DNA from: a virus | Taxonomy: Duplodnaviria; Caudoviricetes | IMG/VR virus record: IMGVR_UViG_3300001918_000027 | Span: 1-62,660 of that record | DNA length: 62,660 nt | Direction: 5' to 3' (one strand) | Shown: positions 8,411 to 56,693 of the stretch, piece by piece | How the letters are laid out: each line of letters opens with the position of its first letter | Position numbering within the stretch: the stretch's first letter is position 1 | The notes under the pieces: generated by a model | Database searches by the model: none | Seen by the model: only the letters and a program-made list of their open reading frames with translations | What the model was told of the DNA's origin: nothing | Position numbers and translations under genes: made by a program

Positions 8411-9794
8411 CCGGACCTCCTTCTTTGCTTTGCTGGCTGGCTTTTGCCGCACTCATGTAAACACCTTCTTTGCTGGGATCAGTTGGTAAGCCCTTAGCCT
8501 CTCGTACTTCGTTTACCTGAACCGCTGGCGTGATATCAACATCGGTTAAGCCGCTGATATCAATGCTGTTTTTAATACCGAGTTCGTATTTATCAAAGCC
8601 CAGGCCGGTCCATTTCTGACACTCGTAAAAAATGTCATTCCAAACATTTTGCATGACGTCCTCCTGGGCAGGCCTGATTACGGTGTTCAACTTCAGCTCA
8701 ATAATCTTTGTAACAAAGCCCGAACCCTTACCCAAGGTGCTGGCATTGACTAAACCGGCAAGCACGGCATCCCATTCATTAGCCAGGATGATTTTTTGCA
8801 TCCATTTGTCATCGGCCTCTATGAAACTGCCATCCTTTTGTGTATCGAAGGAATGAAAGCTGCTGCTGTCTATGCCTTCTTCACTGGCTACAACAGCAAC
8901 ACGGCCTCGTTTACCATCACCGGTATGGGTGTTGATGATTTGCTTTGCAATACGATTGGCTTCGGTTTGGCCTACCTGCCCCTTTAAGGCCAGCATACCA
9001 CCGATTACCATGTTGTTGTCAAAGTTGTCAAGGTCATAGCGAGCACCCTTGTATTCCAGTATTTGGTAAATCATACTGGCAACAGCGGAGGGTAAGCCGT
9101 AATGATCGAAGCCCGCTACGGGATTGCTGTACCAAATAATGGTGCGCTCAACATCGCCATCACGTAGCCAGTTGCTTTTCTCCTTATTGCCTGCGCGATA
9201 AATTGGAATTGGCTTAGCCTTAGCAAGTTGCTCACTGGTTGCAATCCCTTGCCTGCGAAATAACTTGCTGGAAATCGCCTCTGTTACATCGCCGTCCTCG
9301 TTTTCACTGCAGAGTCTCCACTCCAGGAAATTATGAACATAGACATAAAAGTATTTCTTACCACCAACTTTAAATCGAACTAATTCAATAGGCACATTAC
9401 CCCAGGTAAAAAAGGACTCAAATATTTTTTTATTCAAGCCCAAAGCCTTTTCACTCTTGCGGTTCATTTTTTTGAACCAGTCGACGATATCGACATCAAG
9501 CTCTCTGCCTTTGATATCGGCGAATCCCATCCCACTGCAGTAATCCTTTTTTGTAATGATACAGGCATTGTGAGTAGTGGATGCAAGCCGGGCCTCAAGT
9601 AATTGCTTGGCATAGTCATCGTCGGGGAAAAGGAAGGGTAAATACCGGTGGCCGCTAATGGTGGAATAACTCAAAGCATTTTCAAAAGGAACCGGGTTGC
9701 GGGCATCGATCTGCGCCACATTGGAAACACTATTTTTTTGGTGCTTCTGATTCGGATGATTCCTTTTGTTTTGTCTTGCCTTGGAGTTATTCAT
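8403..9794 (-). CDS. Portal protein
   Basis: 463 aa; S.TH.ACI..K, YGLP, NF.N.M, NEVRE..GLP portal motifs. Confidence 0.85.
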   Translation of the reverse strand: MNNSKARQNKRNHPNQKHQKNSVSNVAQIDARNPVPFENALSYSTISGHRYLPFLFPDDDYAKQLLEARLASTTHNACIITKKDYCSGMGFADIKGRELDVDIVDWFKKMNRKSEKALGLNKKIFESFFTWGNVPIELVRFKVGGKKYFYVYVHNFLEWRLCSENEDGDVTEAISSKLFRRQGIATSEQLAKAKPIPIYRAGNKEKSNWLRDGDVERTIIWYSNPVAGFDHYGLPSAVASMIYQILEYKGARYDLDNFDNNMVIGGMLALKGQVGQTEANRIAKQIINTHTGDGKRGRVAVVASEEGIDSSSFHSFDTQKDGSFIEADDKWMQKIILANEWDAVLAGLVNASTLGKGSGFVTKIIELKLNTVIRPAQEDVMQNVWNDIFYECQKWTGLGFDKYELGIKNSIDISGLTDVDITPAVQVNEVREAKGLPTDPSKEGVYMSAAKASQQSKEGGPDV

Positions 9795-9811
9795 TGCCGG
9801 GATGGATATAC

Positions 9812-10048
9812 TTACTTACTTTTTTGCTCTTGCCGCCTTTTCTGAATCTGGCCGTCTACTTTTTCCTTTACCAGGGTATCGGCATCGGGCAGATCGCCCT
9901 CAAACAGTTTAAGCAACGAGGCATCGCCACTCTGCTGTGCGATGATTGCGAGTTCGTCGATATCAGTACGCTCGCCCAAAGGCAAGGCGCTGCCATTGAA
10001 ACCAATGACAACGCCTCTGTACTCACTCCTTATTTTGGCTTTCGCCAT
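9812..10048 (-). CDS. Small hypothetical phage protein
   Basis: ORF from MAKAKIR in late operon. Confidence 0.55.
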   Translation of the reverse strand: MAKAKIRSEYRGVVIGFNGSALPLGERTDIDELAIIAQQSGDASLLKLFEGDLPDADTLVKEKVDGQIQKRRQEQKSK

Positions 10049-12207: not shown

Positions 12208-13383
12208 TTAGGCAGTGGTTGGAATATTCCACCTGCCGATAGGCTCGTCGGTTTTTTCGTTTTTGGGCTTGGTTTCTTTGCCCTTGTTTTGAGCAATTTC
12301 TTCTTCCAAATCCTTTGCCTTTTGTTCGAGTTCCTTAACCTTTTGACTTAGATTGCTGACATCATCGCCCTTAGGCAGTTTGGCGTCCTGTATCGCCTTG
12401 TTAACAGCGTTGGAAATCAGGGTGGCAACATCCTGGCCTTTCAGGGCTTCGGTTACCGCATTTTTCGCCTGATCGGCCACAGAGGTTTCGAACTGTTCAG
12501 CCACGTTTTCAAATGGCTTACTTACGGCCTCAGCAATGCTGTTCACCAGGCTTTCCTGACTGCCATCTTCTGCCGGCTTTACTCCTTTAATGGCGTTCAT
12601 GATGGAGTTGCCCAAATCGGTGAAGAATTTCTTCATCTCATTAAATTGTTTGGTGATTAAATCGTGTTGGTTAGGTTCTTGCTGAGCTCGTGGCGATGTA
12701 GGCGGCTTGCCTACGGCAGAGTTGTACGCATTGAGTACAGCGATGTTGCTAAAGTTCCAGAGCTCTTTTGGAATAGCATTTGTGAAGCCGACTTCATCGG
12801 TTAGTGTTTTTACAAAGCCTTTGTTTACGGTTTCCTCACCGGTTAACCAGGTTTCCTGGTCCATTAGTTTGGTGATTTCCTCCTTCCGAAGCCCGGTGGC
12901 CTCTGCATAGAAGTCGCGAATCCTGTCATTGAATTTCCGCAGGGTTTTTGCGTAGTTTTCGATTACATAAACATCACCATATACACCACCGCTGGCATTA
13001 TGCACCATGAACCAGCTATTCTTTGTGATTTCGCTGTTGCGGCCTGCCATAAGTATGTAGGTGGCTGCACTGGCAATAATTCCCCGGCCAATGGTATTGA
13101 CGGTTTTGCCCTTTTTCTGAAGATCAACCAGGAGGTCGTACATAGCCATGGCATCGCCCACGTGCCCACCATAGCTATTGATGTAAATGTTAAAGGTCTT
13201 TGCCTCACTGGCCGTTAGTTGATCGCGGAGAGACTTGTAAGAAACGCTGGTTTCATCACCCCACCAATCCCGCAATATTTGCTGTGTTTCAGCATCTACA
13301 ATAACACCATCAATGTAAACATCAATGGCATCGTTGGCCTGATTCTGGATGGAGAAATTAAATACTTGTAGCTTCTTTTTCAT
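12208..13383 (-). CDS. ClpP-like prohead protease with C-terminal scaffold
   Basis: INSYGG, ASAAT, FMVHNAS, ETWL..EE..GF motifs; coiled-coil C-terminus. Confidence 0.92.
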   Translation of the reverse strand: MKKKLQVFNFSIQNQANDAIDVYIDGVIVDAETQQILRDWWGDETSVSYKSLRDQLTASEAKTFNIYINSYGGHVGDAMAMYDLLVDLQKKGKTVNTIGRGIIASAATYILMAGRNSEITKNSWFMVHNASGGVYGDVYVIENYAKTLRKFNDRIRDFYAEATGLRKEEITKLMDQETWLTGEETVNKGFVKTLTDEVGFTNAIPKELWNFSNIAVLNAYNSAVGKPPTSPRAQQEPNQHDLITKQFNEMKKFFTDLGNSIMNAIKGVKPAEDGSQESLVNSIAEAVSKPFENVAEQFETSVADQAKNAVTEALKGQDVATLISNAVNKAIQDAKLPKGDDVSNLSQKVKELEQKAKDLEEEIAQNKGKETKPKNEKTDEPIGRWNIPTTA

Positions 13384-13491
13384 CGCAGTACAAAGCTGCG
13401 AGGTATTTTTACTATTTTTTAGTTATAAAAACTATTTTGGTAACAAAGTTTGTAAGCGATTCCGAAAGCTCGTTGAAAAAAAAGTTTTTAA

Positions 13492-13527
13492 AAACATTTG
13501 TTTATTTACAAATGTTTACTATTTTTG
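13492..13527 (+). promoter_or_regulatory. Bacteroidota primary-sigma promoter with overlapping palindromic operator
   Basis: TTTG (13497-13500), 19-bp spacer, TATTTTTG (13520-13527); inverted repeat AAACATTTGT-N6-ACAAATGTTT at 13492-13517. Confidence 0.75.
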
Positions 13528-13574
13528 TACTCACAAACAGGGACGGCAATCCCTTCGGTCTAAAAAAATAAACT

Positions 13575-14345
13575 ATGAGTAAAGTAAAATGCTACAGCGT
13601 TCGACTCGCAGCGCTTACCTCAATTTCAGAAAAGGCCTACAAGGCCTCTGGCTTCGACGGTTCAGAAGCCATAATTCCAAAGTCTGCTGTATTTGGTCCC
13701 GATTGCGAAGTTCAAAAAAGTGATGCTTACTGGATTGCTGCCTTTGCCCTAAAAGGCAAGAGCTTGCAATACAGTGAGAAAAAGATTGAATGGTTCGAGA
13801 TGGAATTTGAACCCAAGCAGGAGGAGGCCAAAGCAGAACCGGAACCAATCGACGAAACACCGGTAAGGGGCTATTTCCTTCGCTGGCAGGAAGTAAGGAT
13901 TAAGATAAATGCTTACGGCAAATTAGCCACCCGGAACCGGCAACACATTTACACCTATGAGGGCCCTGCACATCAGGCTCCGAAAGGCTTTGTACCACTC
14001 CCCGATGATGAGTTTGAGATGGCGAAGAAGAAAGAGGGAGAAATGATTGAACCCTATACAACTCCTGATTTTGCAGCCATGATACAGGCCCAAAGGGATG
14101 CAGAAGAGAGGATTGCAAAACGTGAGCAGGACATGACTCAGCAAAGGGAGAAATGGGAAGCCAACGAAGCCGAAAAAGAAGCTAAGGTTGCTGCATTCAG
14201 GGCTAAACTCGAAACCATTACCGACCTGGAGGAAATGCTAAAAGAATGGAAAGCCGCTGGTGCACCACACCCTGCACCAAAACAGATATGTGAGGCCAAA
14301 AATGCATCAGGCCTCGGCTGGAGACCATTTATTGAATCAATTTAA
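13575..14345 (+). CDS. Hypothetical protein (first gene of plus-strand island)
   Basis: 256-aa ORF downstream of promoter. Confidence 0.7.
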   Translation: MSKVKCYSVRLAALTSISEKAYKASGFDGSEAIIPKSAVFGPDCEVQKSDAYWIAAFALKGKSLQYSEKKIEWFEMEFEPKQEEAKAEPEPIDETPVRGYFLRWQEVRIKINAYGKLATRNRQHIYTYEGPAHQAPKGFVPLPDDEFEMAKKKEGEMIEPYTTPDFAAMIQAQRDAEERIAKREQDMTQQREKWEANEAEKEAKVAAFRAKLETITDLEEMLKEWKAAGAPHPAPKQICEAKNASGLGWRPFIESI

Positions 14346-14441
14346 AACTAAGTGAGGCGTTGCATCCGGGCATTTTCTGTCTGGTAGCAATGCCTATTAA
14401 TCGCACCTTAAGGAATTCGATAACAATTCAAAAACGTTTTT

Positions 14442-15035
14442 ATGTCAAAGCAATCAATTCGCCTTATTGTTGAAGGCGATAAAGTAAAGGTAGTTACTCC
14501 TTATCATCCCGAATTCGTGCATCGGGCCAGGAAACTCAGAGGTGACTGGGATGGCAAAGCCTGGGTATTTGATGAAACCATGCTGGATTACGTGAAAGAC
14601 CTGATGATTAAGTGTTATGGTGTTACCGGTGAGGTGCCTTACGAAACCTGCATACTTGTGGTTACTAATTACAACGACAGCAACTATGGTGGGGCCTGCG
14701 AACTATTTGGACGCACTATTGCCAAGGCCTGGGGTAGGGATAGTGGCGCAAAACTCGGAGACGACATATTTCTCATTAACGGTAGCATTGGCTCCGGTGG
14801 TAGTGTGAAAAACTGGAAGACGGTGGTAACAGATGCCACGCTTGAAATACATGATTTTCCCTTACCTCGTACCGAATTCGAAGACGTGAAAAAAGCCTTG
14901 CAGGAGGGCTGGGTTACGATAAAAATGCCAAAGCCTAAGGCCAGGTCTATTCAGCAAATAGAAGCAGATCTTGCAGAAGCGGTGGCAAAAGTAGATGCCC
15001 TTCGTGAAGAACTTAAAAATGCACAACAACAATGA
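14442..15035 (+). CDS. Hypothetical protein with HARP-like N-terminus
   Basis: TPYHPEFV..ARKL.G.WD.KAW motif. Confidence 0.6.
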   Translation: MSKQSIRLIVEGDKVKVVTPYHPEFVHRARKLRGDWDGKAWVFDETMLDYVKDLMIKCYGVTGEVPYETCILVVTNYNDSNYGGACELFGRTIAKAWGRDSGAKLGDDIFLINGSIGSGGSVKNWKTVVTDATLEIHDFPLPRTEFEDVKKALQEGWVTIKMPKPKARSIQQIEADLAEAVAKVDALREELKNAQQQ

Positions 15036-16675
15036 CATTAGAGCAGCTTTCATATCGAATAAAAGGCTCTAAGTTGATAAAACTGGAAAAAACTGGCACC
15101 GAACGGCTTTATCTCCGTTTCGGTGCCAACAACCAGTACATGAGCACCACGGCTTACCTAACCGTGGTAAACGACAGGATTGATGCCGTTGTAAAGGTGG
15201 AAAACCGCAAGGCGCAGCAACTTCATGATCCCGAAAGAGCAACGAGGTACAAGCAGGACATCGTTGAACAATTTCACGAGTTGATTTACGATTGTGAACT
15301 TGAGAGGAAAAAGGTGCCCCTGCATGAAAGGCTTCGTGACAGCATAACTCCGGTTTACGAAAACAGCCTCCTCCATCAGGCTCAGGCATTGCGGTTCCTT
15401 TGCAGCATGAAAGTATCTGCCCTATTTGCAGACACTGGTACCGGCAAAAGCAAAATCATTTTAGACCTAATAAACAGCAGGTATGAAGCCACTCAAATAC
15501 GAAAGGCTTTGATTTTTTGCCCGGTTGCCACTAAAAAGAACTTCGACGATGAAATAAAAAAGTGGCACCCAAAAACCAAAGTGGAATTCAAAATCGTTGG
15601 GATCGAGAGCATGGGCTCCAGTGACAGAATATTTTTGGAGGCCCTGAATTGGGTTTGTGATGAGACCCAAATCGTAATTGATGAAAGCCATTTTTGCAAA
15701 AACCCATTTGCAAAACGTAGCCTAAGGATACAGAAATGCTGCGACAAAACCAGCTACAAGGCAATACTTACCGGCACACCATTTGAACATCCGAAAGATA
15801 TATATCAGCAATTCGCTTTGCTGTCGCCACTTATAACTGGTTGTAGTAACTACATAAAGTTTGAGCAAAAATACCTCATCATGGGAGGTCCGGCAATGGA
15901 TGAAGTCATTGGTTACAAAAACCTTGACCACCTGTTGGGATTGATAGAACCATACACTTATCAGGTAAGAAAGGAGGATGTATTGAACCTCCCTGCCAAA
16001 CAGTTCCATGAGCGGTACTGCGGGCTCAATGCCAGGCAAGAAGAATTATATAACATTGAGAAAGAAAACCTGCTAAAGGAAATCGAAAACGAGAACATTG
16101 ACGCTCACACTATTTTCAGGTATTTTACCCTACTCCAGCAAATCAGCTGTGGGTTTTACAAACCGAGCCGTGATGCTGAGGTAGAAGATATTGGCAGTAA
16201 TAAACTCGAATTGCTTACTGCGACTGGAATATCGGAGGGGCAAACCCTGTTTTTCTGTAAATACTTATTTGAAACCGAGAAGCTGATAGCATACCTTGGT
16301 AAAGAAAACTGTGCTGTGTTTACCGGGCAAAACACCAAAACCCGGGATGATGAAAAAAACTTATTTGCAACCGGTGAAAAGCGCTATTTTGTAGCCACGA
16401 TGGGCAGCGGAGGCGTTGGTCTCAACGGCCTTCAGGTATGCAGCAGGATAGTTTTCTATTCTAACAGCTTTGCCTGGATGCAAAGAAAGCAATGCATTGG
16501 CAGGATAGACAGACAGGGTCAGGTGAATGGAATGAATATCTATGACCTCATTACAAATTCCGGTATTGATTACAGGATCCAGGCGAACCTTAGCCGAAAA
16601 GGCAACTTAGCTGATGAAATCAGGTCCTTATTGATAGATAAAACTAAATTGAAGCAATATGTCGAAAAATTATAA
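15032..16675 (+). CDS. SNF2-family (DEAD/DEAH-like) helicase
   Basis: DTGTGKS Walker A, IDESH, LTGTP, GGVGLN, QCIGRIDRQGQ. Confidence 0.9.
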   Translation: MTLEQLSYRIKGSKLIKLEKTGTERLYLRFGANNQYMSTTAYLTVVNDRIDAVVKVENRKAQQLHDPERATRYKQDIVEQFHELIYDCELERKKVPLHERLRDSITPVYENSLLHQAQALRFLCSMKVSALFADTGTGKSKIILDLINSRYEATQIRKALIFCPVATKKNFDDEIKKWHPKTKVEFKIVGIESMGSSDRIFLEALNWVCDETQIVIDESHFCKNPFAKRSLRIQKCCDKTSYKAILTGTPFEHPKDIYQQFALLSPLITGCSNYIKFEQKYLIMGGPAMDEVIGYKNLDHLLGLIEPYTYQVRKEDVLNLPAKQFHERYCGLNARQEELYNIEKENLLKEIENENIDAHTIFRYFTLLQQISCGFYKPSRDAEVEDIGSNKLELLTATGISEGQTLFFCKYLFETEKLIAYLGKENCAVFTGQNTKTRDDEKNLFATGEKRYFVATMGSGGVGLNGLQVCSRIVFYSNSFAWMQRKQCIGRIDRQGQVNGMNIYDLITNSGIDYRIQANLSRKGNLADEIRSLLIDKTKLKQYVEKL

Positions 16676-17075
16676 AATCATCGAGCAAAAAGGCGAAAAC
16701 ATAGGAATAACAACCCTTATTGGTCGCTTTGCAATGAGCCCTGAAGTGATCCGTGAAATGGGAGGTTTCCCAATCCTTACCAGTGATAAATTTCATTGGT
16801 GGGTGGCTTTGGATGGCAAAAAAGTCGTTTCTTTTGCAGCCATCAAGGTTCAAGCTAAATCAGCTGTACTAACCTATGCCTATACCGTACCAGAACACAG
16901 ACGTAAAGGATTGCATAAGCGCCTTTTAAATGAACGGATTCAATGGGCTATGGCAAATGGCATAACAATCCTAAAGGCTGATTGCACACCGGCAAGCCTG
17001 CCAAACTTTAAAAAGTTAGGCTTTACTGTTATAAAAGAATTCACAGGTTGGACTAAAGTAGAAAAGAAGTTATGA
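16659..17075 (+). CDS. GNAT-family acetyltransferase
   Basis: YTVPEHRRKGL motif A, F.KLGF motif B. Confidence 0.88.
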   Translation: MSKNYKIIEQKGENIGITTLIGRFAMSPEVIREMGGFPILTSDKFHWWVALDGKKVVSFAAIKVQAKSAVLTYAYTVPEHRRKGLHKRLLNERIQWAMANGITILKADCTPASLPNFKKLGFTVIKEFTGWTKVEKKL

Positions 17076-18346
17076 AAAAATATATTGACATCGATGTGTA
17101 TCAAGCTTTCAGAAATAGATTAAAGTTTGTGTTCGACGAATTCGAAGCCGTATATCTTTCGTTTTCCGGAGGCAAGGACAGCAGCGTCATGCTACAACTT
17201 ACAAATCAATATGCAAAAGAAATTGGGCGAAAGTTTGATGTTTTTTTCCTCGATTTTGAGGCTCAATATACTATGACGATAGCCCATGTATATGAATTAA
17301 AGCAGCTCTCACAAATACGCAACTTCTACCACTATTGCCTACCGCTGGAAAACGAGGACAACCCAAGTAGCATATTTCGTCCAACATGGATACCATGGGA
17401 TGAAAGTGAAAAACATTTGTGGGTCCGCCAGATGCCCGAGGATGCAATAGACATCACAACGGTACCCACAGAAGTATTTAAAAAAGGGCAAGAATGGGAA
17501 GACCTCTTGAAACAGTTTCCTCAATTCCTAAAGGCCAAATACAAAACCGACAAAGTTGGCTGCCTTGTAGGAATTCGTACCGATGAAAGCTACCATCGCT
17601 TCCGCTCTGTTGCTTTCGGTATAAACCGCTACAAAGAACAAAACTGGAGCACAGACTTGGGTAAAGGTGTTTACAATTTTTACCCACTTTACGACTGGAG
17701 TACCCAAGATATATGGCATGCCGTCTGGCGGTTCCGTTTGGCATACAACAGGGTATATGAATACATGTGGCAAATGGGTATCGGTATCCATGAGCAAAGA
17801 ATTTGCCACCCATTCGGACAAGATCAGCGAGTATCTCTAAACCAGTGGGCAGTGATAGAGCCGGAAACCTGGGCTAAAGTAGTAAATAGGGTTAGTGGTG
17901 CCAATTTTGGCAACATCTATGCTAAAACCAGCCTATTGGGTCACAACGGCACCAGCAAGCCAGAATACATGAGTTGGGAACAATACGCAGTATTTCTGCT
18001 TGAAAGCATCGGCCTTTATTCCCCTGACCTTCGCGATCATTACGTTAGGAAGATCAGAATATTGTTTGATTACATAAAAGAGCAAGCGGATATAGATAGA
18101 AGGGATATAACTGAAGACCATTTGGCAAAACCTGAAAAGCTAAAAGATTGGGTAAGTTGGAAACGGATTGCCCGTACAATTGAGAAAAACGATTTTCAAT
18201 GTAGAGGGTTAAGTTATGGGCTTACGCAGGAGGATAGAAAAACCATGCAGAAACTCAAAACCAAATGGGGCAAGCTGTTAGGCCTTGAACACTACACAGA
18301 CAAAGCAATGAAAGAACTTTCAAAACAAATTGATTATGAAATTTAA
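17072..18346 (+). CDS. ibrA: IbrA/YbdN-like PAPS-reductase-family PP-loop protein (DUF3440)
   Basis: SFSGGKDS, D.EAQY, GIRTDES..R, PLYDW, QRICHPFG, RVSGANFG, NDF.CRGL. Confidence 0.85.
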   Translation: MKKYIDIDVYQAFRNRLKFVFDEFEAVYLSFSGGKDSSVMLQLTNQYAKEIGRKFDVFFLDFEAQYTMTIAHVYELKQLSQIRNFYHYCLPLENEDNPSSIFRPTWIPWDESEKHLWVRQMPEDAIDITTVPTEVFKKGQEWEDLLKQFPQFLKAKYKTDKVGCLVGIRTDESYHRFRSVAFGINRYKEQNWSTDLGKGVYNFYPLYDWSTQDIWHAVWRFRLAYNRVYEYMWQMGIGIHEQRICHPFGQDQRVSLNQWAVIEPETWAKVVNRVSGANFGNIYAKTSLLGHNGTSKPEYMSWEQYAVFLLESIGLYSPDLRDHYVRKIRILFDYIKEQADIDRRDITEDHLAKPEKLKDWVSWKRIARTIEKNDFQCRGLSYGLTQEDRKTMQKLKTKWGKLLGLEHYTDKAMKELSKQIDYEI

Positions 18347-19007
18347 TTACACCGAAATCGTAATAAAGCAAATTACCGAAAACTTAATTGAGCAAATCAA
18401 TAGTATTGAAGACACCGAAAGTAAGGTAAATTCATTAAACTATGTTAGGTCTGCTTTGCATGCAGTAAGCCCTTTTAAGGATAATCCTGTTGACTTTGTC
18501 GAATGGGTACCGGCTGAATATGTAAGGGCAAATGACTACAATCCAAATGCAGTTGCACCTCCTGAAATGAAGCTACTAAAGCTGTCTATCGATGAAGACG
18601 GATATACCCAGCCAATAGTTTCTGATAAGGTTACGATTAACGACAGGGAGGTTGTTGACGGATTCCACAGGAACAGAATAGGCCGGGAGTTTCCCGATGT
18701 TAAAAAGCGGCTGCATGGCTACTTGCCTCTAGTAACTATTCGCAATAGCCAAAAAGATAAGCAAAACAGAATTGCGGCTACCATCAGGCATAACCGGGCT
18801 AGAGGCACCCATTCAATAAAGGGTATGAGTGATATTGTTTTATCACTTATAGAAATGGGTTGGAATGATACCCAAATAGCGAAACACCTTGGAATGGATC
18901 CTGAGGAAGTCATGAGGCTAAAACAAATTACAGGCCTTCCCCAGGCATTTTCAAACCATGAATTCAGCAAAAGCTGGGAGGAATTCGAAAGCAAGCATAC
19001 AAAATAA
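18336..19007 (+). CDS. ibrB: IbrB/YbdM-like ParB N-terminal-domain protein
   Basis: ANDYNPNAVAPPEM.LL..SI..DGYTQP, VDGFHR, ATIRHNRARG.H, C-terminal HTH. Confidence 0.88.
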   Translation: MKFNYTEIVIKQITENLIEQINSIEDTESKVNSLNYVRSALHAVSPFKDNPVDFVEWVPAEYVRANDYNPNAVAPPEMKLLKLSIDEDGYTQPIVSDKVTINDREVVDGFHRNRIGREFPDVKKRLHGYLPLVTIRNSQKDKQNRIAATIRHNRARGTHSIKGMSDIVLSLIEMGWNDTQIAKHLGMDPEEVMRLKQITGLPQAFSNHEFSKSWEEFESKHTK

Positions 19008-19084
19008 AAAATGCCCCCTCGGTCGGCAAACCTTGGGGGCGGTTCATCTTTCGGTCTAACAAAAAATAAACAGGAGGCAAAACT

Positions 19085-20122
19085 ATGTTTAAAATCTTTA
19101 AGGCACAAAAAAAGGCCTTTCTTCCGCTGTACAAAGCCATTGCGGACAAAATCAGTAAGGGTGAGGTACTTACCCCGGATGGCAGCAAGTTCACTAAAAA
19201 CACGATTTATAACTACAAAAGCGGAAGCTACCGCTTCAGTCAGTACGAAGCCGAAAACGGAATAATTTACCTCGAAGACATCAATCCCCAATGGGCTGAA
19301 CAGTTCTCGGTGTTTTTGATGAAAAAGGGTTATTGCAAAAACACTATTGCTGTAACGCTGGCAAGGTTAAAAGCCGTTTTGAGGAGGCTTTATGACCAGG
19401 GTGTATCGAAGTACAACGGCAATGGCATAAGGGCTAGTTCTGAACTAACAACCGCTGTTTATAGCAGTATTGAAGACATACGGCAGCTGATGGAGTATGA
19501 TTTTTCCAATACGCCGGGATTGGAAAGAGTAAGGGATATCTATGTTCTGCAATGCTTTATAGGGCTTAGATATAGTGATTTGGCTTCCATTCTGGAGGAG
19601 CCCAAGCGTTTCCTTAGGGACATCGGAGGCAATTTGTTTTTTGATATCAAAACCCAGAAAACCGGGGAGGTGGTTGTAATTCCTGTGGCTCAAGTAGTAA
19701 AAAAGATCCTGGAGAAATATGGCTATACCTTTGGCAAATGCTTTAGCTATCAGTACTACAATAAGTCCATAAAGGAAATCGGCAGGCTTGCTGGCCTCAA
19801 TCAGGAAATTTCCTGCAGCAGGACGGAAGGTGGCACCCGGGTAGATACAGTTAGGCTAAAATGGGCGATGATGAGCAGCCACACCGCAAGGCGAACCTTT
19901 GCCACTAATGCTTTTTTAGCCGGGCTGCCGGAAAAAAGCATTATGGTCATTACCGGCCATAAAACACATTTGGCATTCAATAAATACATCCGGTGCTCCA
20001 GCCTCGACAACGCCATAAAATTGGCAAATCATGACTTTTTCCACCTTGATTTACCCGTAATAATTACCTTGCCGCCACCAAATCAACCGAAATTAACAGA
20101 TGAAAACAGCGACGACAGATGA
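19085..20122 (+). CDS. Tyrosine recombinase/integrase (Bacteroidota type, SAM-like plus catalytic domain)
   Basis: GLRYSD, TQKT, SSHTARRTFAT, TGH, YIR catalytic residues. Confidence 0.92.
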   Translation: MFKIFKAQKKAFLPLYKAIADKISKGEVLTPDGSKFTKNTIYNYKSGSYRFSQYEAENGIIYLEDINPQWAEQFSVFLMKKGYCKNTIAVTLARLKAVLRRLYDQGVSKYNGNGIRASSELTTAVYSSIEDIRQLMEYDFSNTPGLERVRDIYVLQCFIGLRYSDLASILEEPKRFLRDIGGNLFFDIKTQKTGEVVVIPVAQVVKKILEKYGYTFGKCFSYQYYNKSIKEIGRLAGLNQEISCSRTEGGTRVDTVRLKWAMMSSHTARRTFATNAFLAGLPEKSIMVITGHKTHLAFNKYIRCSSLDNAIKLANHDFFHLDLPVIITLPPPNQPKLTDENSDDR

Positions 20123-20321
20123 AGCCTTTGAGCAGATGATACACACCAGAGGCATATATAAGCAACTAAATTTGGCTCAATATACGGTAATGAGAATAAG
20201 GCTTGACCTCAAGAAAGGGGCCCTAAGCATGTCACTTGATCGCAAAATTGAGCTATTGAAATTGGCAGGCTGGCACATTGCTCAGGAAATGAAATGGGCA
20301 AAAAAGGTTAAGCAGTCATGA
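20100..20321 (+). CDS. Small putative DNA-binding protein
   Basis: 73 aa, basic, overlaps recombinase stop. Confidence 0.5.
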   Translation: MKTATTDEAFEQMIHTRGIYKQLNLAQYTVMRIRLDLKKGALSMSLDRKIELLKLAGWHIAQEMKWAKKVKQS

Positions 20322-20334
20322 GTACCTTTGCCAA

Positions 20335-20700
20335 ATGGCTACAAAACTAACAACATACAGTCTTCCGGAATTCGTTTTTCTAGATGGTAACTCGCATCAA
20401 GGCGATAGTTTAGAAGGTAGAACTGTTATACAACATATCAGAACCTATACGATTATTGAGGTCATAGCGGTAGATGAAGTAGGACTGCTGGGCCTAAAGG
20501 ATAATACTAAGACCTTTGAATTTGAATACATCAATGCCTTTGACACCGTGGAAAGGCATGTTTTTGCTCTTCATTTCAGCTTAGCAGATGACGATGAAAT
20601 CTTATCGCAAGTATTTGAAAAAGCAGCTCAGTGGTACTGCGATTATTTAAGATGGGAGGACGAAATCATCGCTTCAGACAACAAAGAGATTTTAAACTAA
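20335..20700 (+). CDS. Hypothetical Bacteroidota mobile-element protein
   Basis: LPEF.F.DG...L.GR.VI.H...A.WYC.YL.WED pattern. Confidence 0.65.
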   Translation: MATKLTTYSLPEFVFLDGNSHQGDSLEGRTVIQHIRTYTIIEVIAVDEVGLLGLKDNTKTFEFEYINAFDTVERHVFALHFSLADDDEILSQVFEKAAQWYCDYLRWEDEIIASDNKEILN

Positions 20701-20702
20701 CC

Positions 20703-20903
20703 TCAGCCCTCACATTTCTGACAACCGTATTGGGCCTGCCGCTCTGTAACACCGAGCCGCATGCTGATTTGCCCGTAGCTTGCTTTTTGCTTCCGGAGCA
20801 TACAGATTTTGGCCTTCAGGACGGCGTCGTCACCAATAAGGCTCACAAACTGATCCCAATTTGTTAAGGCCATTTCCCGAAGCCTTTTATCAAGTTCTGT
20901 CAT
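20703..20903 (-). CDS. Small HTH protein of late operon
   Basis: SYGQISMRLGVTERQAQY HTH; start taken at ATG 20903. Confidence 0.6.
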   Translation of the reverse strand: MTELDKRLREMALTNWDQFVSLIGDDAVLKAKICMLRKQKASYGQISMRLGVTERQAQYGCQKCEG

Positions 20904-21028: not shown

Positions 21029-24000
21029 CTACAAAGTTCCGATTTCTGACTGAATTGCAGCCTTTTTTTGAGCACTGGTTACCGTACTGGTAACTTGTAC
21101 AACTTCGAGCCTGTCTATCCTTTGATTTACTGCTGCATTGCTTTGGTCGATGCGCTGCAGCAGCTCGCCGAACATATCCAGGGTTTGGCCAATGGCTCCG
21201 GGTGCCGTACTGCCAGCCGGAGTAAAAACCGGAGCTTGCAGGCTTTCGCCCAAACTGCCTCCATATTCGAAGCGGGCCACCTTAGCCCCGGAAAAGAAAT
21301 CACGGCCGCCACCGAGCTTGTTTAAAGCCGATGCAATCTGAGTATGGGTACCGCTGATGGTGTACCTGCCCTGGCCTGCGTTCTTGGTTCGGACGATGGC
21401 CAGCTCTCCACCCTCGGCTTCGTAATTAAAGGGTACGCCACCGGCACTATGTGAGGGCCCCGTTATTTTGCCACCGGTTTCCGTGGGCACTTGGCCACCG
21501 TACTCAAACTCGGCCCGATTGATTTCATTTACCCTGAGGGCATACCGACCTACAGCAAGCCCGGCAAGGATGCCATACATCGCTATGCCAGCGGCACCCA
21601 GGGTAATACCATTTAGGGGGTTCTGCGCAGCGGCAACGGCTATGTTTGCCAATTCTGTAGCAAGGGCAACTTTGGCCTCAGCTTTCCTTACCTTTTTGAT
21701 GCGCTCACCGGCCCTGCGTTCCTCCTCCTCTTTTTTTGCCTGATATTCTTTGTCGATTGCAAGTTCTTCATCGCGGCTTTGGGCCCTTGCCAACAGCTGG
21801 TTTCGCTCGAGGTCAAGCCTTTCGAGATTAGCCTCTTTGCTTTGCTGAATCCGCTGTATTTCGGCATCATAGTAGGCATTCATGGCGCCTCGGGCAAGGT
21901 CATAGCTTTGCGATATGGCGTCACCAAGCAGGCCATCTTCCAGGCTGCCTTCCTGGAAATTAAACAGGTTCTTGAGGCCCTGGCGGAGCTGATCGCCAAG
22001 GCTGCGAATTCGGCCGACGGTTTCGTCAACTTTTGCAACGGTGGTGTCATTCAGCTGTGCGGCTTTATCATTTAAGTCTTTAGCTAATAGCAAGTACTCT
22101 TCATCGGTTTTGACCTTGGCGTCGACAAGCTCTTTATAAATCGGTAACTGCTTATTCAGGCTTTCGACCTCAATACCCAATATGCCACGGGTTTCGGCCT
22201 GATTGAGGTCGGCTTCCGCTCTCCTCCTCTCCCTTCCGGTTTTACCCGAAAGCTCAAGCCTCGCCGCCGATATCTGTTCCTGAAACCGGGCAATTGCATC
22301 TCTGCCATCCTGTTGTATTTTTTGCAACTGGGATTGCAGGCTTTCGACCTGGTCCTTGCTTAGATTGCGGTTGATGGTTTTGATGGCCTCGGCTCTTTCA
22401 AAAGCTTTTTCAACCGATTGCCGGCTGTATTGCGCCTCCAAGGCATCCATGTCTTTATTGAATTGTTCCTGCAGCAGCAACAATTGCTTATCGGCATCAA
22501 GCCGGGCCTGTGCCCTTGCCAAAGGGCTGGTGGCGGGATCATCATCAACTGCAGTAAGGTTGGCTTCAATTTCTCTTTTGCGCTGGGCAAAACTGTCCTG
22601 TATTGCTTTCTCCCTGATGTCAAAAATTTGATTACTGGTATCGATTTCGAGCTGTTTTTGCGCTGCCTTTAGTTCCGCGATGGCTGCGAGCTCCTCAGCA
22701 CTGCTGCCCTTTACCAGGTTTAGCTTTTCCCTATATGCCGTCCGGTTGGCCTCAAGTACATTATTGAGGTATTGCTCCTCGGTGATTTCCTGATTCAGGA
22801 AAGAAAGCCTGAGGTCTGCCAATTGCTGCTTAAGGACTTCCTCAATGAGCTTTCGACGCTTCTCTTCGGGGTTTTCGGACTTCGAGGCCCGGCCGCTGCC
22901 CCGGGTTGATGACTTGCTGCCATTTAATAAATCATCCAGCTGTGCATCAATCTTAGCTCTTTCTGCCTTTAAAGCATTAAATTTTTGACTGGTACCCTGA
23001 AAACCAGAGATTTGGTCATCTAATGCCTTTTTGCGCTCCTGAAGGGCTTTGATATCGATATCAAAACTTTGTGTAGCCACAGCAGTTGTTTTGCCTGTCA
23101 AACCAGCCAGTTCAGCCTCGGCCTTTGCCTGAACATTTAAGTACTCCTGGTAGGTTCGAATCCTTTTCTCCTCCTCCTTCTTTAGGGTTGTAATGATTTC
23201 TTTAAAATCATTACCGGTAAAAACAATACCTCCACGGCCATTATTGCGGATGGCCTCACCAAGCACATCATTGGCCAATTGCCTTTCGTTTTCAGAAAGC
23301 CTAACTACAGTGGCACCCTGCCCTCTTGGCGTAAGAGCTGCTTCCTGTTCTATTCTTTGTCGAAGGGTGGACACCGCAATGACCTCGGCATTTTTTTCAG
23401 CACTAAGGGCTGCACTTGCCTCTGCATTAGCCTTTACCCTAATGGCTGCGGTAACCTGCCTGTAGGCTTGCTCCAATTTGGTTAGACTTATGGTCTGTCC
23501 ATCAAGTGCTGAAACAAATGCGGGATTAATCTTTATCAATTCATCAAGCGCTTTCCGCTTGGTGTCGATGGAGGTTGCCGTGCTTCTTATAATGTTTCGA
23601 AGTGCATCTATCCGGCCTATTTGTTGCGATGATATCTGATTCGACCTTCTTTGAACATCTGTTAAAGCATCCAACCTGGCCCTTGCATCTGAAACCTTGG
23701 CAGCAAAAACAGCCAATACCGGAATTACTAACCCCAAGGTGGTTAAAAGCAACCCCAAAGGGCTTACCCTGATGGCACCGTTAAAAAGTACTATTTGCGC
23801 TGTTGCTGCCCTTACAGCTAAAGAATAAGCCAACATTGCGGCCCTTTGGGCCAATAAAACTGTGTTGTAAATAAGGCCTTGCTGACTGGCTATTTGAGTT
23901 GCCACATAGGCCCTGATTTGCTCTGCTTTATAAAGTGCAAGTGCAGTTGTCGCAGCTGTTAGTCCACCTATAAGTATGGGGAAAGGTAAACCCGTTATGA

Positions 24001-35024: not shown

Positions 35025-35378
35025 ATGAGTGAGATGAAACACACATCGGAGCCTTGGATTTATCAGGAAGGGAGCAAAACTATTCGATCGAAAAAACAAA
35101 ACTATTGGATTGCGTCAATGAATAGTTGGGATAACGCAGTTGACAATGAAGCCAACGCAGCCCGCATCGTTGCCTGCGTAAACGCTTGTAAAAACGTACC
35201 CAATGAGTGGCTGCAAGAAAACTCCATTAAGGCAAGAATTCAAGAAATCAGCCTTTTAAAAAAACAAAATCAAATTCTAATAGATACGATCATGGCGATA
35301 GTTGAGGAAGGGATTGATGAATTAAGTATATCTCAACTTCGGGAAGCCGTTGACCACTGTAAAAAAATAAGTCTTTAA
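35025..35378 (+). CDS. Phage protein of 'HTPGPW...EANARLIAA'-type family
   Basis: KHTSEPW...EANAARIVACVNAC. Confidence 0.65.
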   Translation: MSEMKHTSEPWIYQEGSKTIRSKKQNYWIASMNSWDNAVDNEANAARIVACVNACKNVPNEWLQENSIKARIQEISLLKKQNQILIDTIMAIVEEGIDELSISQLREAVDHCKKISL

Positions 35379-35431
35379 TCTACAGCCTCTCACATATCAA
35401 AATGTGAGAGGCATAAATTTCCATTTATCAT

Positions 35432-36115
35432 ATGAACACCTACAGCAAGTACGTACCAAATGTATTCCTCGCGAAGTGCGAGCAGGCCTATGAAAAAGGC
35501 GAAGTAATCGAAGTAACCACTAAGTACGGCAAGGAAAATGAGTGCATAGTCCATAATCTCATCTACCAGAAGGATGGCTACTATTACTACTCCATCACCC
35601 GTGCCGATGGCTTCGACCGGCAGGAATGGGCACGCCGGAAAGCAGAGCGCCTCCAAGGCTTTGCCGCCACTGCAGAGGCAAAGAGCAACCAATACTACGA
35701 AGCCTCCAACGAGGGCAAGGAGTTCCTGCGGTTGGCAGAGCCCATCAAGATCGGCCACCACAGTGAGAAACGCCACAGGGCCCTGATAGATCGCAACTGG
35801 AACCGGATGGGTAAGAGCGTGAAATTCAGCAAAAAGGCTGAGGGCTACGAGAGCAGGGCAGCATATTGGGAAAACAAAGCCAATGACATAAACCTGAGCA
35901 TGCCGGAAAGCCTGGAGTACTATGCCTTTAGGCTGGAGCAAGCCCAGGCTGAGCACCAGCGGCTAAAGGATAACCCCGAGCTGCGGAGCCATTCCTACAG
36001 CCTTACCTATGCCAAAAAAGCTGTGAATGAGGCGCAAAAGAACTTGGAACTGGCAAATAAGCTTTGGGGAGAATGCTCCCCATGTGAATCAAGCGAGGAT
36101 GTCGAAAATGATTGA
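35432..36115 (+). CDS. DUF3560-like protein
   Basis: EPIKIGHHSEKRHR motif. Confidence 0.8.
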   Translation: MNTYSKYVPNVFLAKCEQAYEKGEVIEVTTKYGKENECIVHNLIYQKDGYYYYSITRADGFDRQEWARRKAERLQGFAATAEAKSNQYYEASNEGKEFLRLAEPIKIGHHSEKRHRALIDRNWNRMGKSVKFSKKAEGYESRAAYWENKANDINLSMPESLEYYAFRLEQAQAEHQRLKDNPELRSHSYSLTYAKKAVNEAQKNLELANKLWGECSPCESSEDVEND

Positions 36116-36181
36116 TTACTAATACCAAATCTTTTCTAAAACCGGCCTGGGGTTTCGGCCTCAGGCCATAAAAATTACTTT

Positions 36182-36421
36182 ATGAAAGCACAATTAAACT
36201 ACGCCTCAGGCTGGGTAATGACCTTTCCCAAGCATTCCCTCGGGCCAATGCTATTTATGGAATGGCTGCAAAACAACCCGAGACACCCCAGGGATTTTAG
36301 GATAGAAAGCCATGCATCAGAGGAGGATGTATTGGATGACCACTTCGTAATTCGGTGGAAAAGCGGAAGCAAGGAAAGTATCACAGATTGTTTTGAGTAC
36401 ATTAAAGGAAACCTTATCTAA
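36182..36421 (+). CDS. Hypothetical protein
   Basis: 79-aa ORF, TAATG-coupled to GNAT. Confidence 0.55.
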   Translation: MKAQLNYASGWVMTFPKHSLGPMLFMEWLQNNPRHPRDFRIESHASEEDVLDDHFVIRWKSGSKESITDCFEYIKGNLI

Positions 36422-36828: not shown

Positions 36829-36863
36829 GGGAGCCATTTTTAAACCAAGTTAATAAATTTATC

Positions 36864-37109
36864 ATGCATCATCAAATTAAGGTATTTCGAAACACAGCAG
36901 GAATTGAGGCCTTTCTTGCAGAAAACAATGTTGAGGTTATCGATATAAAATACATATTTACTCAGAATGTAGTGACGGGCCCTTATTTTAATACTGTAGA
37001 CCATAGTGGCCAGCCCGTTTGTCTAAGAAAGGGAGATATCTATGGCGATAGTCAATACATACTGGTTTTTAAAATTATAAAAGAATTGCCCAAAGAAGTC
37101 CTGGGTTAA
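36864..37109 (+). CDS. Hypothetical protein
   Basis: 81-aa ORF. Confidence 0.5.
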   Translation: MHHQIKVFRNTAGIEAFLAENNVEVIDIKYIFTQNVVTGPYFNTVDHSGQPVCLRKGDIYGDSQYILVFKIIKELPKEVLG

Positions 37110-56684: not shown

Positions 56685-56693
56685 TCTTGGTTG

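Follow-up and report, generated by a model that had tools for sequence, protein, structure and literature searches.

An SNF2 motor, a GNAT protein and an IbrA/IbrB pair on an inserted block of a temperate Bacteroidota phage: a candidate DNA-modifying cassette

IbrA and IbrB form a widespread enzyme pair that most likely acts on DNA but is usually mislabelled as a sulfur-metabolism gene. In E. coli, the IbrAB island of strain ECOR-9 and the YbdN/YbdM paralogues of K-12 belong to these families, with a PAPS_reduct plus DUF3440 protein encoded beside a ParB-like protein. In the accessible parts of the IbrAB literature, the sole functional record is genetic, namely that IbrAB raises expression of the prophage eib genes (PMC7649339, citing Sandt 2002). 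The available portions of two further papers describe precedents for a ParB-fold NTPase working with a DNA-modifying enzyme, DndB/DndC and DpdB/DpdA; in the former, as also with BrxP of type 4 BREX, a PAPS-reductase-like PP-loop ATP pyrophosphatase and a ParB-superfamily partner act on DNA (PMC10853773, PMC12839542). In the 7-deazaguanine DNA modification system, a ParB-like ATPase (DpdB) aids the modifying enzyme DpdA, and SNF2-type helicases such as DpdE are part of the system. SMARCAL1-type HARP-SNF2 annealing helicases carry a small HARP-like beta-beta-alpha domain on an SNF2 motor.

The locus described here lies in a virus genome of 62,660 nucleotides (IMG/VR record IMGVR_UViG_3300001918_000027), the whole of which was analyzed and is referred to as the window. 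Here, IbrA/IbrB is coupled to a motor protein, as an inserted extra block in a prophage; a literature search for the SNF2/IbrA/IbrB gene set found no paper. Compared with the E. coli IbrAB sets by description rather than by sequence, this locus adds an SNF2 motor of the IbrA-linked lineage, a separate HARP-like protein, a dedicated GNAT, a phrog_5809 protein and an integrase-bearing block in a phage. We propose that this accessory cassette is a DNA-tracking enzyme machine, probably a DNA-modifying one, and put the probability of this reading at about 0.45, a little short of even. It is supported by gene linkage, gene fusions, mosaic descent, an IbrA-IbrB co-fold, the folds involved, the accessory nature of the block and the precedents for ParB-like partners.

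The block was delimited by blastn against the sibling phage L217, in which backbone homology extends up to position 13454 and resumes at 20728. The intervening ~7.3 kb (13455–20727, + strand) lie on the strand opposite to the phage structural genes and are bounded by the stop of a tape-measure-like gene on one side and the head-protease start on the other. Because the same slot in siblings L217 and L218 holds ~1 kb and none of the block genes, 13455–20727 is an accessory insertion; the whole stretch, with its own integrase, sits in a temperate Bacteroidota phage or prophage. The first block gene (13575–14345, +) encodes a 256-aa protein with an N-terminal phrog_5809 domain (1.7e-30), which found no Pfam family and only unnamed phage clusters in the ESM Atlas. 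The same domain is also present upstream of SNF2-IbrA-IbrB in L172, L006, L082 and L075 (54–68% identity). A promoter-like motif, TTTG..TAnnTTTG (13497–13527, +), stands 48 bases 5' of this gene and fits what we take to be the Bacteroidetes-type consensus; the motif matches three times in the window against a chance expectation of 3.07, and only its position favors this site. The single promoter named in the first pass is accordingly no more than putative. At the other end are a tyrosine recombinase, or integrase (19085–20122, +; Phage_int_SAM_5 3.5e-11, phrog_1 5.4e-17), and two small ORFs of 73 and 121 aa that close the block (20100–20700, +), neither with a Pfam match and the second belonging to phrog_18499. 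An integrase homologue (39% identity) comes after IbrB in L174, and the siblings G403 and G404 yielded none. The unit is therefore larger than the five genes to which the first-pass annotation had confined it, with the phrog_5809 gene upstream and the integrase and two small genes downstream in one inserted block.

Those five genes are themselves real: they are consecutive + strand ORFs running from 14442 to 19007, overlapping by 4, 17, 4 and 17 bases in order, and their domains and motifs matched the earlier description. The first encodes P0001 (14442–15035, +; 197 aa; phrog_18108 4e-24), with a HARP-like N-terminal domain, a beta-rich domain and a C-terminal helix (AF2 model, pLDDT 95.1). 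The family numbers 94 proteins, and the beta-rich-domain motif AWGRDSGAKLG...SGGSVKNWxT is invariant in the alignment. The name HARP-like, already given to this protein in the first pass, is a lead only. The N-terminal 66 residues of the model resemble the N-domains of XPB and UvsW weakly (Z 4.5–5.6, below the level that would go beyond a common fold), and the ESM Atlas includes clusters automatically named HARP, but a protein scan of P0001 for HARP at E <= 0.01 gave no match, and the sole match of the Pfam HARP model across the window (50782–50883) falls in the other SNF2 protein of the phage, where it exceeds the cut-off. Compared with SMARCAL1, the HARP-like module here stands apart from the motor in its own protein, which has an additional beta-rich domain; the Pfam model misses the module. 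P0001 is also found 5' of SNF2-IbrA-IbrB in L171, L172 and L174.

The second gene encodes P0002 (15032–16675, +; 547 aa), an SNF2-family ATPase/translocase (SNF2-rel_dom 2.5e-19, Helicase_C 2.6e-6, phrog_62 2.6e-81) in whose translation the motifs GTGKS, DESH and GRIDRQGQ are intact. With the SNF2 half of P0218, a fusion protein, it shares 33% identity (E 1e-54), and by sequence comparison we assign it to an IbrA-linked SNF2 lineage. A search at E <= 1e-10 among 1274 candidates returned 10 longer IbrA relatives (870–903 aa), all of which carry SNF2-rel_dom, Helicase_C, PAPS_reduct and DUF3440; domain order in these SNF2-IbrA fusions was checked on 3 of the 10. An SNF2 protein could act on protein-DNA complexes instead, which speaks against a role as DNA presenter. 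P0002 was also considered as the replication helicase of the phage and ruled out, the replication module having a separate, HARP-bearing SNF2 to which P0002 is 22% identical (E 4e-11).

The cassette as a whole might still serve replication, recombination or packaging, with a fork-remodelling SNF2, the HARP-like subunit and a ParB-like binder acting on intermediates and IbrA as a nucleotide-handling accessory. The HARP-like N-domain of P0001 would suit such a factor, as would the ERF, NinG, DnaB, AAA_24 and DUF2800 genes that neighbor many of the loci and the location of the IbrA/IbrB pair between terminase and portal in phage FCL-2. We consider it improbable, however, because the replication module of this phage is already complete and includes its own HARP-SNF2 and a ParB-like protein, sibling phages live without the block, and the PP-loop enzyme is given no role.

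Linkage was examined, with tblastn among the searches, in 159 IbrA-related loci taken from IMG/VR and from the genomes of species in many phyla. IbrB was present in 152 of these, and SNF2 adjoined IbrA/IbrB in 31, leaving 128 without it, a majority that counts against the proposed machine. The third gene of the set encodes P0003 (16659–17075, +; 138 aa), a GNAT-fold protein (Acetyltransf_1 6.3e-10) with the acetyl-CoA motif RRKGLHKRL in its translation. An HMM built from P0003 and seven relatives detected the subfamily in 28 of the 159 loci, and P0003 is thus a member of a dedicated GNAT subfamily that travels with IbrA/IbrB. Since the alignment shows the acetyl-CoA motif to be lost from the GNATs of Clostridia copies, the family must be able to do without an acyl step. 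As a GNAT-fold member of a phage accessory set that may modify DNA, P0003 presumably parallels Mom of phage Mu, although the searches run brought up no similarity to Mom; compared with Mom, the cassette GNAT is of a subfamily linked to IbrA/IbrB, and its cofactor motif is lost in some lineages.

All four genes, whose co-occurrence elsewhere the first-pass annotation had made decisive, were found together in 8 of the 159 loci (L003, L004, L017, L024, L031, L033, L044 and L154). Sequence identities point to mosaic descent, with partners swapped and linkage retained: P0001 and SNF2 are nearest to those of L171, L172 and L174 (50–56%), where IbrA is only 29–33% identical, and IbrA and IbrB are nearest to those of L006 and L082 (55–67%), where SNF2 is 28–31% identical. 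Sampling of 401 genomes within the class to which G001 belongs turned up IbrA in only 5, and it occurs in 134 of 50,697 phage records. The earlier view of these genes as one functional set acting on DNA is supported by their co-occurrence, by the SNF2-IbrA fusions and by the predicted binding of IbrA to IbrB.

The fourth gene encodes the IbrA-like P0004 (17072–18346, +; 424 aa; PAPS_reduct 5.8e-16, DUF3440 1.4e-28, phrog_2302 2.6e-83), which has 6566 relatives and combines a PP-loop PAPS-reductase fold (residues 1–235; motif SFSGGKDS in the translation) with a helical DUF3440 domain. Foldseek related the core of P0004 (AF2 model, pLDDT 72.7) to PAPS/APS reductases, the tRNA thiolases NcsA/TtuA, FMN adenylyltransferase and CysD at E of about 1e-5 to 1e-3. 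The Pfam family and the phrog_2302 label, 'phosphoadenosine phosphosulfate reductase', would agree with an auxiliary role in sulfur metabolism, in which IbrA, as a PAPS reductase of CysH type, would raise sulfate assimilation by the host, and phage PAPS reductases are so interpreted in papers, as the available text of one indicates (PMC12323421). Such a role is extremely improbable here: the NCBIfam CysH/CysD matches all lie far under the thresholds set for them (26.6 bits where 154 are required, to take one), there is no other cys gene nearby, and the protein has an obligate ParB-like partner (152/159 loci), SNF2 fusions and an extra DUF3440 domain.

The analogy with DndC drawn in the first pass proved apt as a description of how the pair may work, a PAPS-reductase-like enzyme with a ParB-like partner, but the DNA thiolation proposed along with it was not borne out. 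The block holds no sulfur or amine donor gene; the PADLOC models of DndC and BrxP matched IbrA partially and weakly (2.6e-6 and 5.1e-6), and TIGR03183 gave 18.6 bits against a cut-off of 290. The several cysteines remarked on earlier are indeed present, four in number, of which C245 alone is nearly invariant from phylum to phylum. Compared with Dnd, DndA, DndD and DndE are lacking here and IbrA does not have multiple conserved cysteines; a cysteine dyad is called unique to DndC in the accessible text of the Dnd papers (PMC10853773 / PMC12839542). Compared with Dpd, the locus has neither a tRNA-guanine-transglycosylase homologue nor preQ0 pathway genes, and its enzyme is a PP-loop protein.

The fifth gene, with a TTG start, encodes the IbrB-like P0005 (18330–19007, +; 225 aa; phrog_2159 6.8e-70), which consists of a ParB-N domain, an HTH and a conserved C-terminal tail (residues 202–219) and has the motifs DGFHR and RHNRARG in its translation. 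ParB_N matched P0005 at only 3.7e-4 (20.9 bits against a cut-off of 26.3) and was matched by 19 of the 22 aligned family members, and the family profile found solved structures of ParB (3.8e-6), Noc (1.1e-4) and SbnI (9e-4). Co-folding of IbrA and IbrB gave an ipSAE of 0.69 (runs of 0.71, 0.69 and 0.65), the best of three controls giving 0.00; 116 of 157 solved complexes attain the mark applied, as do 2 of 215 mismatched pairs. The runs agreed in at least 82% of contacts with a partner pLDDT of at least 68, and there is no solved relative from which the model could have memorized the complex. The contacts fall on invariant columns, namely D208, D213 and W215 of IbrA and G202, F207, F212 and W216 of IbrB. 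IbrA and IbrB are thus predicted to bind, with the tail of IbrB docking on IbrA.

An expression regulator would account for several of these features. IbrB would then be a ParB/KorB-type, nucleotide-switched clamp with an HTH that switches on silent phage or host genes and leaves the DNA unmarked, SNF2 would strip silencing proteins or remodel transcription complexes, and IbrA would tune the clamp by nucleotide chemistry. Among solved structures, those closest to IbrB are of ParB and Noc, which bind CTP; an HTH is present, the block has its own promoter-like site beside an integrase, and the one genetic result in the accessible literature is that ibrA/ibrB raise prophage eib expression (PMC7649339). 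We nevertheless judge this reading to be unlikely, because a PP-loop enzyme as strongly conserved as IbrA (~50% identity of Bacteroidota copies to those of Listeria or Clostridia) is more than a regulator requires, the IbrA-motor fusion is left unexplained and the eib result could be put down just as well to an epigenetic mark.

In the DNA-modifying machine that we favor, P0002 would track along or open DNA, aided by P0001 as a separately encoded HARP-like subunit recognizing DNA structure, and would pass the DNA to an IbrA-IbrB heterocomplex. There, IbrB would be the ParB-fold, nucleotide-binding, HTH-bearing DNA binder whose conserved tail anchors IbrA. IbrA, a PP-loop enzyme of the PAPS-reductase/CysD/FMN-adenylyltransferase/DndC fold group, would spend ATP adenylylating a target oxygen and so make it replaceable, with the dedicated GNAT as acyl-group supplier or adaptor. 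The net result would most likely be that DNA, mainly that of the phage itself, carries a covalent mark and is read differently by host nucleases or silencing proteins. We infer DNA as the substrate, covalent modification as the outcome, the identity of the mark and its beneficiary.

A system of this kind could also be prophage-encoded anti-phage defence, expressed through lysogenic conversion, in which the marking or depletion of something makes superinfecting phages fail, as with Dnd, type 4 BREX or Dpd. The block is opposite-strand cargo that brings a promoter-like site of its own and neighbors an integrase, and one sibling phage keeps different cargo in this slot. In phages phiCs5676-1 and CHPC1230, the set lies 3' of the lysis genes, toward an integrase or cro-like gene, and the stretch after the lysis genes is the usual home of lysogenic-conversion genes in temperate phages. 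In PADLOC, the best match of P0002 was DpdE (4.6e-17, C-terminal part only), with others, likewise weak, to ZorD, DrmD and BrxH, beside those of IbrA to DndC and BrxP. The available text of a 2026 preprint also predicts defence clusters that combine a nucleoid protein, a PAPS reductase and a ParBc protein (10.64898/2026.04.06.716658). Defence, which the first-pass annotation offered as one half of its proposal, emerges as the weaker half and is unlikely: the set is not a known defence system, PADLOC having found no system-level match and nothing for IbrB (E <= 0.01), GNAT or P0001, the block has no dedicated nuclease or other effector, and the genes that surround 80 IMG/VR loci serve phage replication and recombination rather than defence. 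Moreover, the authors who described FCL-2, with its pair between terminase and portal, report that it has neither an integrase nor a repressor and that they detected no lysogeny (PMC4541368). Placement of the pair among phages varies from the end of the lysis genes to the vicinity of replication and recombination genes or the terminase-portal gap, a range that fits any accessory function.

Gene calling returned five open reading frames on the plus strand, at 14442–15035, 15032–16675, 16659–17075, 17072–18346 and 18330–19007, overlapping by 4, 17, 4 and 17 bases, exactly where the first-pass annotation had placed its five consecutive genes. Four of its five labels (SNF2, GNAT, PAPS_reduct/DUF3440 and ParB-N) were borne out by Pfam and PHROG profile searches. 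The product of the second gene (P0002) scored 69.9 bits against SNF2-rel_dom (PF00176; 2.5e-19; cut-off 24.9) and 28.1 bits against Helicase_C (PF00271; cut-off 23.5) and matched phrog_62 at 2.6e-81; its translation carries intact ATPase motifs (GTGKS, DESH, TGTP and GRIDRQGQ). Having both lobes and these motifs, P0002 is classed by sequence as an SNF2 family ATPase. The product of the third gene (P0003) matched Acetyltransf_1 (PF00583; 6.3e-10; 39.8 bits, cut-off 20.7). The acetyl-CoA-binding motif of GNAT proteins has the form R/Q-x-x-G-x-G/A, and translation and alignment place it in P0003 as RRKGLH; by fold and by this motif, P0003 is a predicted GNAT acetyltransferase.

The fourth product (P0004) matched PAPS_reduct at residues 28–230 (PF01507; 5.8e-16; 59.4 bits, cut-off 22.5), DUF3440 from residue 236 (PF11922; 1.4e-28; 100.3 bits, cut-off 25) and phrog_2302 (2.6e-83), and its translated PP-loop is intact (SFSGGKDS). 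The fifth (P0005), encoded at 18330–19007 in the same direction as P0004 and overlapping it by 17 bases, matched phrog_2159 at 6.8e-70 and retains the motifs DGFHR and RHNRARG in translation. ParB_N scored 20.9 bits in this copy, under the Pfam cut-off of 26.3, and was matched in 19 of 22 aligned relatives in the family. A PAPS_reduct domain followed by DUF3440, with an adjoining co-directional ParB-N protein, marks P0004 and P0005 as IbrA and IbrB, members of the IbrA/IbrB (YbdN/YbdM) families. Because the motor, PP-loop, ParB-N and GNAT motifs are all intact, the window copy is a good specimen of this gene set, of which it is not a unique example. The functional data found for these families are confined to two results: YbdO represses ybdNM (PMC9068703), and ibrAB increases eib expression, as relayed second hand in PMC7649339. 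Activation of prophage genes is the phenotype from which the pair takes its name. What is new here relative to the known IbrA/IbrB kind is the HARP-like subunit, the GNAT gene 5' of IbrA, and an integrase-bearing cargo block.

The window comprises a complete IMG/VR provirus record (62,660 bases) whose phage genes are nearly all encoded on the minus strand, with the operon on the opposite strand. From the high end, the backbone encodes RecT, a ParB-like protein, HARP-SNF2, a replication initiator, methyltransferases, terminase, a tape-measure-like protein (21029–25540, minus strand), a head protease (12208–13383, minus strand), capsid and lysis genes. The operon is flanked on one side by the stop of the tape-measure-like gene and on the other by the protease start. 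The proteases of two sibling phages, L217 and L218, are 79% and 52% identical; in both phages, the tape-measure-like and protease genes are ∼1 kb apart and the operon genes are absent. Blastn comparison with L217 showed that backbone homology stops at 13454 and restarts at 20728. The intervening block of ∼7.3 kb holds nine genes: a phrog_5809 protein, the five reported genes, a tyrosine recombinase and two small ORFs. The unit is larger than the first-pass annotation reported and is cargo. The gap between the tape-measure-like and head protease genes is a cargo slot in this phage lineage (window 13455–20727 versus L217:9258–9929), and in L217 it holds a 163-residue membrane protein on the opposite strand (9322–9813). 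A distant blastn search with 13349–20800 against the phage collection found matches over just 74 and 99 bases and no others.

The first gene of the block (13575–14345, plus strand) encodes a 256-residue protein with a phrog_5809 domain, which precedes SNF2-IbrA-IbrB in four other loci (L172, L006, L082 and L075) and had no named relative in the ESM Atlas. The tyrosine recombinase (integrase) is encoded at 19085–20122 on the plus strand. A 39% identical integrase follows the P0001-SNF2-IbrA-IbrB set in locus L174, and the two sibling records G403 and G404 carried no homologue. It is the only tyrosine recombinase among the 65 ORFs scanned and sits mid-record, not at a provirus end. This recombinase might move the block itself. 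A search for direct repeats (att sites) bounding the block, at 13455 and 20727, was negative. A promoter-like motif of the Bacteroidetes type (13497–13527, plus strand) precedes the phrog_5809 gene; since such motifs occur in the window at chance level, only its position supports it. Scans for sigma-70 promoters and terminators gave sites no more frequent than in shuffled sequence. The gap separating the IbrB stop from the integrase start holds a GC-rich hairpin (GCCCCC, 16-nt loop, GGGGGC; 19013–19040). At 13554–13568 and 19050–19064, ∼20 nt 5' of the start codons for the block's first gene and for the integrase, respectively, lies a 15-nt repeat, TTCGGTCTAA(A/C)AAAA, which may be a shared control element.

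We collected 80 loci around IbrA relatives from IMG/VR and 80 from species genomes, the latter spanning Bacteroidota, Clostridia, Fusobacteria, Enterococcus, spirochaetes, Verrucomicrobiota, Lentisphaeria, Fibrobacterota, Planctomycetota, Alphaproteobacteria, Helicobacter and haloarchaea. One locus (L096) was left out because it had no intact called IbrA ORF, and 159 were scored with HMMs built from the loci. IbrB was present in 152, SNF2 was adjacent in 31, and a GNAT of the same subfamily was found in 28. The first-pass annotation had named a failure of the four genes to co-occur elsewhere as a ground for refutation; all four occur together in eight of the 159 loci (L003, L004, L017, L024, L031, L033, L044 and L154), so this ground falls away. 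When the count is limited to the 112 loci with flanks of 1.8 kb or more on each side, SNF2 was present in 26, GNAT in 21 and both in seven. IbrA and IbrB usually enclose the GNAT gene; L033, like the window, has it between SNF2 and IbrA. Alignment showed that the GNAT copies of Clostridia are without the acetyl-CoA motif.

The strongest link in the set is the fusion of SNF2 with IbrA. A search for longer IbrA relatives (870–903 residues, E <= 1e-10) returned 10 proteins out of 1274 candidates, and all 10 carry SNF2-rel_dom, Helicase_C, PAPS_reduct and DUF3440, with the domain order verified in three. P0002 is 33% identical to the SNF2 half of one fusion (E = 1e-54), compared with 22% (E = 4e-11) to the phage's own replication SNF2. 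The closest IbrA relatives (P0006–P0027) share 63–83% identity. P0001 and SNF2 are nearest to those of L171, L172 and L174, and IbrA and IbrB to those of L006 and L082, the other halves being distant each time; the module is a mosaic in which partners are swapped and linkage is kept. A scan with the single IbrA protein gave no match in IMG/VR and one 1075-base locus in the metagenome collection.

Other small genes occupy the position directly 5' of IbrA. A protein family of ∼130 residues (consensus ...YSCEHNLTN...IAYIGQAACC...) lies there in 27 other IbrAB loci (e.g. L011, L021 and L039) and is fused to IbrB in three (L038, L042 and L054), and a phrog_26647 protein holds the same place in 15 loci. 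Neither was found in the window. That these two are hidden GNATs was ruled out by hhalign (probability 0.1%).

The HARP-like label given to the first gene product, P0001, is a lead and not a result. The protein had no match to Pfam HARP (PF07443) at E <= 0.01, and a six-frame scan of the window with the same model gave a sole match, at 50782–50883 (26.9 bits, above cut-off), at the N-terminus of the other SNF2. That second SNF2, in the replication module at 49243–50916 on the minus strand, has an SMARCAL1-type annealing-helicase architecture. The structure model of P0001 (pLDDT 95.1) returned nothing from the PDB by Foldseek at E <= 0.001. With VIA-align, residues 1–66, the only part aligned, matched the N-domains of XPB (Z 5.6 and 5.5) and UvsW (Z 4.5) and many other small alpha/beta domains, all below Z 8. 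ESM Atlas rows, which like these fold matches serve as leads only, gave clusters auto-named HARP and N-termini of phage SNF2 proteins. The P0001 family has 94 members with an invariant motif, AWGRDSGAKLG...SGGSVKNWxT, within a beta-rich domain (residues ∼67–165). P0001 is followed by SNF2, IbrA and IbrB in L171, L172 and L174 also, with other small genes interposed, and 42 of 46 loci of more distant relatives do not adjoin SNF2, IbrA or IbrB. Kinship with cluster c7 (phrog_16123), the gene 5' of SNF2 in other loci, was not found (hhalign probability 4.9%).

Functionally, the set most resembles DndC/DndB, and DpdA/DpdB with SNF2-type helicases, as these are described in PMC10853773 and PMC12839542. 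In the Dnd comparison, P0004 scored 18.6 bits against the DndC equivalog TIGR03183 (cut-off 290.4), its PADLOC DndC match (2.6e-6) is restricted to ∼90 residues, and no DndA (or IscS), DndD or DndE family was found among the Pfam, PHROG, PADLOC and NCBIfam matches of the block genes. P0002 gave partial PADLOC matches to the helicases DpdE (4.6e-17), ZorD (7.8e-15), BrxH (3.7e-10) and DrmD (2.5e-9), and NCBIfam DrmD models scored 17.8–20.1 bits against cut-offs of 610–950; PADLOC found no PglZ, BrxC, DpdA, ZorAB or DrmA/B in the block. The set thus does not match BREX type 4, Dpd, DISARM or Zorya, the helicase hits being partial and the core genes missing from the block. As a CysH, P0004 falls short of an equivalog-level match (NF002537, 26.6 bits versus a cut-off of 154). 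By PADLOC and NCBIfam, the set failed the tests for Dnd, BREX, Dpd, DISARM and CysH and had no system-level match to known defence systems. In the literature searched, which includes only a minority of subscription journals, neither the SNF2-IbrA-IbrB trio nor its chemistry was described, and no paper found or solved structure gave a chemistry for IbrA-type proteins.

The core of the IbrA model (pLDDT 72.7) matched PAPS/APS reductases, CysD, FMN adenylyltransferase/FAD synthase, LarE and the tRNA thiolases NcsA and TtuA by Foldseek (E from 1e-5 to 1e-3), whereas its DUF3440 domain is helical and had no structural match. Enzymes with this fold spend ATP on adenylylating a phosphate, sulfate or carbonyl oxygen, or cleave such an adenylylated bond. 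Only one IbrA cysteine, C245, is nearly invariant across phyla, which makes a conserved iron-sulfur site unlikely; a step through one persulfide or thiol may occur. Against solved reductases, the IbrA profile aligned only over the FYP..DW..DIW stretch (E 0.066–0.21); these alignments, inspected for a match of C245 to the catalytic Cys of CysH, ended before that residue. Sequence searches of solved structures gave nothing for IbrA beyond a marginal CysD match (E = 0.0043) and, with single sequences, nothing for IbrB or P0001. The IbrB family profile matched ParB (3.8e-6), Noc (1.1e-4) and SbnI (9e-4), and IbrB has an HTH-like stretch at 145–181.

Co-folding of IbrA with IbrB from purpose-built alignments gave an ipSAE of 0.69 (runs 0.71, 0.69 and 0.65), against 0.00 for the best of three controls. 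Among solved complexes, 116 of 157 attain this ipSAE mark, as do 2 of 215 mismatched pairs. The three runs shared at least 82% of contacts, with a partner pLDDT of at least 68, and recall of a known complex is unlikely because no similar complex has been solved. The co-fold supports binding of IbrA to IbrB and is not proof of it. In the predicted interface, the conserved C-terminal tail of IbrB (202–219, GLxxAFxxxxFSKSW) packs against IbrA residues 1–12 and 208–239, with invariant columns at IbrA D208, D213 and W215 and at IbrB G202, F207, F212 and W216.

IbrA-type proteins span bacterial phyla and haloarchaea, with 6566 relatives from one search. A sample of 401 genomes from the class of genome G001 yielded IbrA in 5, and 134 of 50,697 phage records carry it, among them 88 for Flavobacterium and 21 for Streptococcus. 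Clostridium phage phiCs5676-1 has an endolysin gene followed by a hypothetical gene, SNF2, IbrA, a ParB-like gene, several small genes and integrase, and in Streptococcus phage CHPC1230 lysin is followed by IbrA, IbrB and a cro-like gene. Flavobacterium phage FCL-2 carries the IbrA/IbrB pair between terminase and portal; its authors report neither an integrase nor a repressor and detected no lysogeny (PMC4541368). Neighbors in many IMG/VR loci include ERF, NinG, DnaB, AAA_24, DUF2800 and a C5 methylase. This distribution fits an accessory function serving the phage itself more than a defence island of the lysogen.

The interpretation first offered is supported in part: a helicase-coupled, DNA-directed enzyme set holds, thiolation or acylation stays hypothetical, and defence is the less likely half. 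The SNF2-IbrA fusions, the predicted docking of the IbrB tail, the dedicated GNAT subfamily and the removable cargo together lead to a concrete hypothesis, a DNA-tracking adenylylating complex with named candidate residues in IbrA (S32, G34, K35 and D36 of the PP-loop, and C245), IbrB (R114 in DGFHR) and SNF2 (K139 and the DESH motif). Tentatively, at about three chances in ten, we propose that SNF2-IbrA-IbrB, with GNAT as an optional fourth member, is an undescribed and very widespread motor-driven DNA-modifying machine of phages. An oxygen of a DNA phosphate or base would be adenylylated by IbrA, with chemistry akin to CysD, FMN adenylyltransferase or DndC; the substituent then installed would not be sulfur, as it is in Dnd. 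Such a mark would shield the phage DNA or reset transcription. If this is so, the old 'co-activator' phenotype of IbrAB would be explained as an epigenetic effect. IbrA-type proteins are routinely labelled PAPS reductase and taken for viral sulfur-metabolism genes, and thousands of 'viral cysH / PAPS reductase' labels, now serving as sulfur-cycle markers, would then be wrong. If the set modifies DNA, the phage-host arms race would gain a new class and non-canonical DNA a new source; should it instead be a regulator, it would represent a new use of the ParB fold.

Two DNA methyltransferase genes lie at 41897–43366, which also matches phrog_498, and at 45820–46617, both on the minus strand, and the phage therefore already marks its DNA by methylation. 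A second opposite-strand island (35025–37846, plus strand) holds phrog_17519 and phrog_2700 proteins and a GNAT (36421–36828) without similarity to P0003. Two tRNA genes, for tRNA-Cys(GCA) and tRNA-Met(CAT), are located on the minus strand at 56522–56595 and 56693–56765.
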